From: an uncultured Bacilli bacterium
GTDB lineage: Bacteria; Bacillota_I; Bacilli_A; RF39; UBA660
DNA length: 64,000 nt
NCBI GenBank assembly: GCA_934101795.1
Contig: CAKORY010000002.1
Location: forward strand, 25,200 to 89,199
Direction: 5' to 3'
Each line of letters begins with the position of its first letter. Position 1 is the first letter of the stretch. Shown piece by piece: positions 7,241 to 8,034 of this stretch. The position numbers were made by a program, and so were the translations under genes. The notes below the pieces were generated by a model. It searched no databases. It was given only the letters and a program-made list of their open reading frames with translations, and had not been told where the DNA came from.

Positions 7241-7278
7241 GCTCCACAATAAGTAATGAAGTGGAGTGAATTTTTTTG
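7241..7278 (+). terminator. Rho-independent terminator after mfd (stem gctccac/gtggag + T7), overlapping spoVT RBS/start
   Basis: hairpin gctccacaataagtaatgaagtggag followed by ttttttt; the TTG start of spoVT is the end of the T-tract. Confidence 0.5.
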
Positions 7279-7788
7279 AAACAAACTGGTGTAACAAGAA
7301 AAATAGATGAACTTGGAAGAATAGTTATTCCAAAGGAAATTAGAAAGAACTTAGGTATTAGAGATGGTGAAGCTCTAGAGATATTTACTAGTGAAGATAG
7401 CATTATATTAAAAAAATATTTTGAGGTAAGAAGGTATGAAGATTTAAGTAGTAAATTATGTGAACTTATTAAAAATATTTATAATGTTGATTTAGTAATT
7501 ACAGATAGAGAAAAGGTTATTACTTCTTCGAATAAGGATATTGTGGAAAACTCTAAACTTAATAACAAATTTTTGGAACTTATTGATAACAGAGAAATGT
7601 TTATAACTAAAGAGTTATCAACAATAAATTTAGGTGTTGATATAAGTGGATATTTTACTTTGATACCCATTATTGCATCAAGTGATTCTTTGGGGCTTGT
7701 TATTATTATAAGTGATAAAATAAATGATTATAGTTCTTTGGGAAAATTACTTGCAAAAATTATTGCTGATAAAATTGATATATTTTAA
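7276..7788 (+). CDS. spoVT: Stage V sporulation protein T (AbrB-type N-domain + GAF-like C-domain)
   Basis: TTG start; N-terminus KQTGVTRKIDELGRIVIPKEIRKNLGIRDGEALEIF matches the SpoVT/AbrB swapped-hairpin domain; 170 aa; directly downstream of mfd as in Bacillus. Confidence 0.8.
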   Translation: MKQTGVTRKIDELGRIVIPKEIRKNLGIRDGEALEIFTSEDSIILKKYFEVRRYEDLSSKLCELIKNIYNVDLVITDREKVITSSNKDIVENSKLNNKFLELIDNREMFITKELSTINLGVDISGYFTLIPIIASSDSLGLVIIISDKINDYSSLGKLLAKIIADKIDIF

Positions 7789-7789
7789 C

Positions 7790-8034
7790 TTGAATTAAAC
7801 TAAGATTTATGATAAACTAGTTTTAATTAACGAAGAAGGAAAGAGTAGATATCATTCGTTTCATAGAGATTTTTTGGTTGGTGGAAAAGAAAAGATGAAG
7901 ATATTCGAACATGGCTCTGGAGTTAAAAGCGGGTAATTACGTTATAAATTTTAAGTTGCATGATAAATCATGAATTAAGGTGGTACCGCGGGTTATACTC
8001 GTCCTTAGTTTGTGGTTTTTTTATTGGAGGAAAT
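7790..8034 (+). promoter_or_regulatory. T-box riboswitch-like leader (candidate Met specifier) upstream of dut-metG
   Basis: near-consensus T-box sequence aattaaGGTGGTACCGCGGg at ~7972-7991 (consensus AATTAGGGTGGNACCGCGG), followed by T-run; AUGA candidates in the upstream region. Confidence 0.55.

Follow-up and report, generated by a model that had tools for sequence, protein, structure and literature searches.

A T-box riboswitch ahead of a dut-metG-tatD operon in uncultured gut Bacilli, with a candidate terminator that overlaps Stem III

A dUTPase gene (dut) that lies behind a T-box leader and directly ahead of the methionyl-tRNA synthetase gene metG raises two questions: which gene the riboswitch is there to regulate, and how the leader switches. 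Both arise in a 64-kb stretch of a contig from an uncultured Bacilli bacterium (hereafter the window), for which a first-pass annotation made from the sequence had proposed a T-box leader upstream of dut-metG-tatD. The proposal is borne out by an Rfam covariance-model scan. The sole Rfam match in the whole 64-kb window is to RF00230 (T-box) on the forward strand, scoring 106 bits where the gathering score is 93 (E = 2.2e-22), and it covers model positions 1–219 from end to end. The element is a T-box riboswitch, predicted from its specifier to be specific for tRNA-Met. The T-box itself is ordinary and riboswitches of this kind are well known; what is new is the variant of the expression platform, with a terminator of a Stem III type, and the apparent dUTPase passenger in the operon. 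We consider the explanation as a whole, a class I tRNA-Met T-box with dut as a passenger and a terminator that displaces Stem III, to be probable. The features of the locus are collected in Table 1.

Table 1. Features of the T-box leader and operon (window positions), and genes inserted between the Met T-box and dut at related loci (locus positions)
Feature	Position	Strand	Basis
Promoter: -35 TTGAAT (7790–7795), extended -10 TGaTAAACT (7810–7818)	7790–7818	+	read from sequence, predicted
T-box leader, Stem I through antiterminator	7824–8009	+	RF00230 match
Stem I	7830–7923	+	covariance-model alignment
S-turn in Stem I, AGUA / GAA	7844–7847 / 7907–7909	+	covariance-model alignment
AG bulge, AGAGA	7865–7869	+	covariance-model alignment
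Stem I distal loop, GGUUGGUGGAA	7876–7886	+	covariance-model alignment; tRNA elbow element
Specifier codon AUG (Met), 3' purine G7914	7911–7913	+	RF00230 specifier position
Stem IIA/B-like element, GCGGGUAAUUACGUUA	7929–7944	+	IIA/B positions of model match
Purines around Stem III, AAGUUG and AA	7953–7958 and 7973–7974	+	motif as defined in PMC7583486
Stem III, CAUGA (7959–7963) / UCAUG (7968–7972), loop UAAA	7959–7972	+	
T-box sequence, AATTAAGGTGGTACCGCGGG	7973–7992	+	motif quoted in first-pass annotation
Antiterminator, A1 and A2	A1 7977–7980 / 8003–8006; A2 7988–7993 / 7997–8002	+	every pair checked base by base
Antiterminator bulge, 7 nt, UGGUACC, with UGGU at 7981–7984	7981–7987	+	
Terminator conformer: extension helix 7966–7976 / 8007–8017, then U-run 8016–8022	7966–8022	+	MFE, RNAalifold
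dut Shine-Dalgarno sequence, GGAGG	8026–8030	+	read from sequence, conserved in relatives
dut, trimeric-type dUTPase, 165 aa	8035–8532	+	PF00692, conserved motifs
metG, methionyl-tRNA synthetase, short form, 512 aa	8519–10057	+	NF008900, PF09334
tatD-family hydrolase, 256 aa	10050–10820	+	PF01026 257 bits, TIGR00010 268 bits
HAD / CinA / 170-aa insertions, part 1	L009:3381–4004, L037:3351–3989, L038:3362–3985, L063:323–961		
HAD / CinA / 170-aa insertions, part 2	L072:3372–3995, L079:3290–3994, L011:3521–3985, L077:3456–3968		

The leader has many of the elements found in canonical class I T-boxes such as those of B. subtilis tyrS and glyQS and the RF00230 family. It shares with these a specifier loop, an AG bulge, a distal loop, a UGGN bulge, a Stem III flanked by RRRxG...AA purines, helices A1 and A2, and a U-run just before the RBS, and the specifier likewise corresponds to the amino acid of the downstream synthetase. 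The AUGA triplets originally suggested as specifiers are not the ones used; the covariance-model alignment instead places AUG (7911–7913), followed by G7914, at the specifier position (GAA-C-AUG-G). The T-box motif is present as described, but its end lies 33 nt from the dut RBS rather than the approximately 45 nt first estimated, and the U-run that was said to follow it consists of seven uridines. The 5' purine string AAGUUG is one nucleotide longer than the RRRxG motif. In an alignment of 23 leaders Stem III is paired in 98% of cells, with a closing pair that is C-G in 10 and U-A in 13, and the AA dinucleotide at 7973–7974 is invariant.

The Stem II hairpin is absent. Model positions ~106–132 are almost all deleted in the RF00230 alignment, and the corresponding site in the window is 7924–7928. 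The leader thus departs from canonical class I T-boxes in lacking Stem II although its specifier is not Gly. The best-known natural losses of Stem II are those of glycine T-boxes, whose codon-anticodon duplex is GC-rich; the AUG:CAU duplex is not. Some orthologous leaders keep a Stem II hairpin (L020:3847–3877, L060:3865–3893), while the window leader is without the S-turn hairpin of this domain. Stem II is considered an optional T-box domain (PMC7583486). A search for tRNA genes against which the anticodon and discriminator base could be checked found none in the 64-kb window.

The leader is preceded by a predicted promoter of its own, with a 17-nt spacer and a TG (7810–7811) extending the -10 element (TAAACT, 7813–7818). 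The extended -10 occurs in the same place in relatives as TGnTAAACT, TGnTAGACT or TGnTATAAT, and a consensus scan gives an overlapping match. Transcription is predicted to start at approximately 7825. The 245 nucleotides first described as an untranslated region are therefore only in part leader, as the promoter falls inside them and the transcribed portion is only ~210 nt. The stop codon of a spoVT-like gene (7786–7788) lies directly before the promoter. No terminator is evident between this stop codon and the T-box promoter, so some read-through from upstream is possible.

ORF callers place the dut start at 7960, where an in-frame ATG falls within Stem III, and so add 25 codons that run over the T-box and the terminator. 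We place the start at ATG 8035 because the N-terminus MRxFEKIS is conserved among 35 homologues and because of the position of the RBS. Some N-terminally longer family proteins in the databases (P0027, 219 aa; P0030, 182 aa) may share the start-site error.

In the canonical model of T-box attenuation, it is the 3' strands of A1 and A2 that supply the terminator with its 5' strand (PMC7583486, PMC10907184). The first-pass annotation had been unable to fold the terminator and antiterminator helices by eye. Fold prediction recovers the antiterminator, and the terminator could not be folded because the window leader has no canonical one: the 3' strands of A1 and A2 (7997–8006) have no downstream complement in this leader, and MFE folds from Stem III to the U-run never pair the strand preceding the U-run with them in the window's clade. 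The MFE fold instead pairs 8007–8017 (AGUUUGUGGUU) with 7966–7976, made up of Stem III's 3' strand together with the AAUU linker. A1 is thereby lengthened downward until it takes in the start of the U-run, with helices A1 and A2 and the UGGUACC bulge left intact. Unlike in canonical class I T-boxes, A1 and A2 thus stay paired, and it is the extension of A1 at the expense of Stem III that is predicted to terminate transcription. Stem III and the extension helix are mutually exclusive, since both require nucleotides 7968–7972; two forms still compete, as in other T-boxes, but the terminator's competitor is Stem III. By calculation, the form with Stem III, A1 and A2 has an energy of -9.8 kcal/mol, as against -18.7 kcal/mol once the hairpin is extended. 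The terminator form is more stable by 8.9 kcal/mol, and OFF would thus be the default state, as in other T-boxes.

The extension helix is shared by many related leaders. We sorted the terminators of 64 leaders (the window and 63 further loci) with an MFE classifier, which places 35 of them in the extension class. Of these 32 are clear (the window and 31 relatives), and they include both Met and Tyr leaders; in the remaining 29 the classifier finds a terminator that competes with the antiterminator in the usual way. No canonical terminator could be folded in any of the 32 clear leaders; the extension helix in them is 11–17 bp long and in every case stops precisely at the U-run. When 23 distinct leaders are aligned, 96.8% of the helix's cells are paired, compared with 42–51% in slid controls, and changes on both sides are found in 5 of 14 pairs, the covariation being mostly G-U to A-U among related sequences. 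A consensus obtained independently with RNAalifold also consists of the extension helix with A1 and A2. In an alignment-free duplex test the mean energy is -8.7 kcal/mol for cognate strands, -6.2 for non-cognate strands and -2.5 for shuffled strands, and none of 2000 permutations reached a value as low as the cognate mean, a shuffle statistic that is inflated by shared ancestry. Because the extension stem is AU/GU-rich at its base, its strength as an intrinsic terminator is putative.

For comparison, an independent sample of unrelated T-boxes was fetched from metagenomes by the consensus motif AGGGTGGTACCGCG, 80 of which had a U-run. Among these 80 there are 78 competing terminators and one unpaired case, and the single example scored as 'extension' is a 2-bp artefact with Stem III intact. 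The extension terminator is thus uncommon among T-boxes at large and particular to the window's lineage. We found no description of a terminator overlapping Stem III in T-box reviews, the TBDB paper or a 2026 preprint, and it may have been noted elsewhere.

We propose that a class I (transcription-attenuating) T-box controls whether transcripts begun at its own promoter continue into dut-metG-tatD, a translationally coupled operon, with MetRS as the regulated target. Stem I would read the anticodon of tRNA-Met with AUG 7911–7913, and the UGGU bulge (7981–7984) would pair with the ACCA end of the uncharged tRNA. When no tRNA is present, or only charged tRNA, the purines would be free and 8007–8017 would zip onto the AAUU linker, including AA 7973–7974. 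The zipping strand would then branch-migrate through Stem III, displacing its 5' strand, and A1 would thereby grow into a long hairpin abutting the U-run (8016–8022), leading to termination. With uncharged tRNA-Met docked, Stem III and AA 7973–7974 would be engaged, which would hide the toehold and leave 8007–8017 single-stranded. The hairpin would in this ON state stop ~10 nt before the U-run, and the polymerase would read through. Both alternative helices exist and covary in the sequences, and the dependence on tRNA and the kinetic order of these steps are what we infer. The tRNA 3' end cannot be held without Stem III and the 5'-RRRxG...AA-3' purines (PMC7583486), and this requirement makes Stem III a plausible switching element. 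One feature argues against the mechanism: A1, A2 and the bulge persist in the OFF hairpin, and tRNA might therefore still dock there.

For the M. tuberculosis ileS T-box, Battaglia et al. 2019 (as summarised in PMC10907184) describe a pre-formed antisequestrator and an OFF state that strand invasion brings about once the linker and purines have been dislodged, which resembles the toehold logic proposed here. The ileS T-box differs in that control is translational, through a hairpin that sequesters the Shine-Dalgarno sequence, and in that the invader pairs with the antisequestrator strands and not with Stem III. The metICFE-mdh T-box in S. aureus controls methionine biosynthesis genes and is reportedly specific for initiator tRNA (PMC3771891). 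It shares Met specificity and transcription attenuation with the system proposed for the window, where the predicted target is MetRS instead. The need for Stem III and its purines has emerged from structural studies since 2019, yet textbook models still locate the switch in the antiterminator strands. If the mechanism is correct, a natural T-box family would show that Stem III can itself be the switching element, and the approximately half of orthologous leaders that are canonical offer matched natural controls.

We judge it highly improbable that the switch is a conventional one to which the extension helix is incidental, whether through a canonical terminator that we missed, sequestration of the Shine-Dalgarno sequence, or a duplex involved in processing or decay. 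Pairings that could serve such a switch do exist. UCCUU (8002–8006) can pair with GAGGA (8027–8031) of the RBS, and ACCGCGGGUU (7985–7994) can pair in the window with AGUUUGUGGU (8007–8016) to form 10 bp, five of which are G-U. However, the former comprises only 5 bp over a 20-nt loop and is absent from every MFE fold, and the latter, a weak helix, is broken in the closest relatives L001–L008, which have GUGAU for GUGGU; both candidates were rejected. A processing role has a precedent in a Met T-box leader of S. aureus that is cleaved by RNase III (PMC7913692). The extension helix, however, is both the MFE and the RNAalifold solution, carries compensatory changes in 32 leaders and ends at the U-run. 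Additionally, about half of the orthologous leaders have a clear canonical terminator at the same position, so a terminator is to be expected here.

The missing Stem II and the retention of the antiterminator in the OFF hairpin, which is odd for a switch, could also be taken as signs of a decaying or constitutive T-box relic that has lost its response to tRNA. We see almost no chance that this is so. Stem II is optional (PMC7583486), the core motifs are all intact and the Rfam score is over the threshold, the specifier matches the synthetase in about 60 species and for three amino acids, and invariance or covariation is seen in Stem III, in the bulge and in the AA dinucleotide.

The first gene behind the leader encodes a protein that matches PF00692 with 47 bits (cutoff 22). 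Each of the NCBIfam dUTPase models scores it under its cutoff, with 130 of the required 223 bits for PRK13956 and 78 of 103 and 68 of 103 bits for the others. Several motifs are invariant or near-invariant in 36 sequences, namely A37 G38 Y39 D40, R76 S77, G92-I-I-[E/D]-S-D97-Y, Q130, and R148..G151..G153 S154. These correspond to the five dUTPase motifs, including the acidic residues of motif III and the C-terminal R-GG-GS arm, all of which are present in dut. The nearest solved structure is PDB 3h6x (E = 4.8e-29, residues 23–156). Like the PRK13956-type trimeric dUTPases and 3h6x, the window protein has all five motifs; it differs from the PRK13956 type in that it falls below the equivalog cutoff and in that the first acidic residue of motif III varies between E and D within its family. 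We predict that the product is a trimeric-type dUTPase with the corresponding activity. In one related protein (L079:3995–4486) motif V is degenerate, with ERTGWSGNPNRK for R-GG-GSTN, and motif III reads DYYDNPETHGH; the activity of this protein may be reduced or altered.

The metG product matches NF008900 with 807 bits (cutoff 598) over profile positions 2–513 of 648, and the C-terminal tRNA-binding appendage is thus absent. The coding regions of dut and metG overlap by 14 nt and those of metG and tatD by 8 nt, and both overlaps recur in relatives. Given the overlaps, all three genes must be transcribed through the leader. The operon is flanked by mfd and a SpoVT/AbrB-like gene upstream and by ksgA downstream, which are the usual surroundings of metS-tatD in Firmicutes. 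The SpoVT/AbrB-like protein (window 7276–7788, 170 aa) scores 91 bits against a SpoVT equivalog cutoff of 236.

We identified 80 dut loci in species-representative genomes with a profile of dut homologues. Nearly all of these come from MAGs of uncultured gut bacteria classed as 'Bacilli', 'Tenericutes' or 'Mollicutes', among them Ca. Onthocola and Ca. Coprovivens, and the commonest gene order is mfd - spoVT-like - dut - metG - tatD - rnmV - ksgA. A T-box was found at 63 of the 80 loci with an nhmmer leader profile, in each case upstream of dut and on the dut strand, and the order T-box-dut-metG recurs in dozens of related species. At ten loci dut is followed by tyrS (TIGR00234, ~372 bits) and at two by thrS (TIGR00418, >700 bits). 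The specifier tracks the synthetase that follows dut in every case (AUG with metG, UAC with tyrS and ACU with thrS), and this agreement spans about 60 species and three amino acids. Against RF00230 the Met leaders of relatives score 99–118 bits, the Tyr leaders 70–87 bits and the Thr leader L032 90 bits. The Tyr and Thr matches lie under the gathering score, and were missed at that threshold and recovered with an E-value threshold; they are full-length with E no worse than 5e-13. The second Thr leader, L040, has no Rfam match at E<=0.001 and was assigned from the nhmmer search (70 bits) and by reading its motifs.

The T-box is absent from all nine dut-tatD loci that have no synthetase gene, and an Rfam scan of dut-tatD leaders gave no match at E<=1. 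It is also missing from one clade (L026, L033, L041, L055) in which dut-metG lies behind a plain promoter. At twelve loci another small gene lies between the T-box and dut, encoding a HAD hydrolase, CinA, a dimeric dUTPase (PF08761) or a 170-aa protein. The insertions between a Met T-box and dut comprise a HAD-family hydrolase at six loci, and a CinA domain protein and an uncharacterised 170-aa protein at one locus each. The junction between leader and synthetase thus seems to serve small genes as a landing site, and of these dut would be the longest established and most persistent. At L013:3508–3999, L014:3493–3999, L019:3529–3999 and L057:315–800 two unrelated types of dUTPase are found in tandem behind one riboswitch.

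The tyrS-linked and thrS-linked dut genes each form one derived clade in a neighbour-joining tree of dut, a short protein for which such a tree is weakly resolved. The same weakly resolved tree gives at least four separate origins for the dut-tatD arrangement that has no T-box. Met and Tyr leaders are 0.66 identical in Stem I and 0.80 in the 3' domain, compared with 0.70 and 0.79 among Met leaders. The similarity of Met to Tyr leaders is thus about that among Met leaders, which fits re-specification of a homologous leader. A chimeric origin, with the 3' domain and dut recombined behind a foreign Tyr Stem I, was considered and set aside, as these identities show no clear breakpoint.

The first-pass annotation had read the operon as a coupling of dUTPase to methionyl-tRNA charging. 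The operon arrangement holds and recurs in relatives; the comparative data argue against a biology specific to methionine, because dut lies behind Tyr and Thr T-boxes as well. The riboswitch most likely serves the synthetase, with dut as a probable passenger. We assign it to the synthetase because the specifier follows the synthetase, because the T-box is lost when the synthetase leaves the locus, and because other genes have been inserted in the same position. In this history dut would have been inserted between the leader and the synthetase in the ancestor of this gut Bacilli lineage. Synthetases encoded by the second gene behind a matching T-box are known, as are T-box duplications with a change of specificity (Wels 2008, PMC2494555). 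The 'light green' class and the 'tRNA ligase related hypothetical' genes of that study likewise have an unrelated small gene before the matching synthetase. Unlike in those cases, the intervening gene here is a dUTPase, and it is found in dozens of species and in Met, Tyr and Thr operons. A search of the literature on T-boxes, dUTPase and methionyl-tRNA synthetase gave no account of a T-box operon that contains dut, and Wels 2008 does not mention the gene.

Were dut a passenger placed purely at random, it would be expected with T-boxes of fewer specificities than the three behind which it lies. It is possible, though in our view rather unlikely, that dut is deliberately regulated, with dUTPase output made to follow tRNA charging or the capacity for translation; dUTP sanitation and dUMP supply might, for instance, be geared to growth or starvation. 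Such regulation would explain why dut has been retained directly behind T-boxes of three specificities, as the first or second gene after the Met, Tyr and Thr elements. Additionally, the derived position of the tyrS- and thrS-linked clades would imply that dut became re-associated with a T-box/synthetase operon at least twice, and in tyrS operons a second, dimeric dUTPase (PF08761) adjoins dut. However, the specifier follows the synthetase and never dut, the clade of L026, L033, L041 and L055 has dut-metG behind a plain promoter and no T-box, and dut-tatD loci also occur without one. Unrelated HAD and CinA genes fill the same slot, and no literature link between dut and T-boxes was found. The three contexts can moreover be accounted for by re-specification of a duplicated homologous leader (PMC2494555). 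That dut has been repeatedly selected to sit behind T-boxes (Met, and then Tyr and Thr), and is not a chance passenger, we hold to be improbable. Were it true, dUTP sanitation would be wired to tRNA charging in small-genome gut Bacilli, pointing to an unrecognised link between nucleotide-pool hygiene and translation or to a second, non-enzymatic role of dUTPase.

If dut is a passenger of a synthetase T-box, as we favour, the locus bears on how T-boxes are used in annotation. What the gene next to a T-box does is commonly deduced from the specifier (PMC2494555), a rule that would here wrongly tie a dUTPase, a HAD hydrolase or CinA to methionine. The extension of ORF calls into the riboswitch is a second annotation hazard at dut. 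The leader-dut unit, found with three synthetases and three specifiers and losing its T-box together with the synthetase, provides a clean case of T-box regulon rewiring, and one that comes from uncultured gut Bacilli with reduced genomes.

Two groups of related leaders show features of their own. The Thr T-boxes (L032:3791–3990, L040:3768–4001) have GGAUGGUACC instead of GGUGGUACC, and Stem III is deleted in the Rfam alignment. In L032 the terminator pairs with the strand of the T-box bulge itself. A conserved promoter-like sequence, TATATACT, is found at four dut-tatD loci that have neither metG nor a T-box (L035:3900–4003, L045:3900–4003, L059:3900–4003, L066:1452–1555). It is accompanied at all four by a short leader with a hairpin and a U-run that lie ~10 nt before the dut RBS. 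The hairpin shows one compensatory pair (C-G/A-U), and a 5' UUAAGUA is complementary to its loop sequence UACUUAA. This leader could be a small attenuator.
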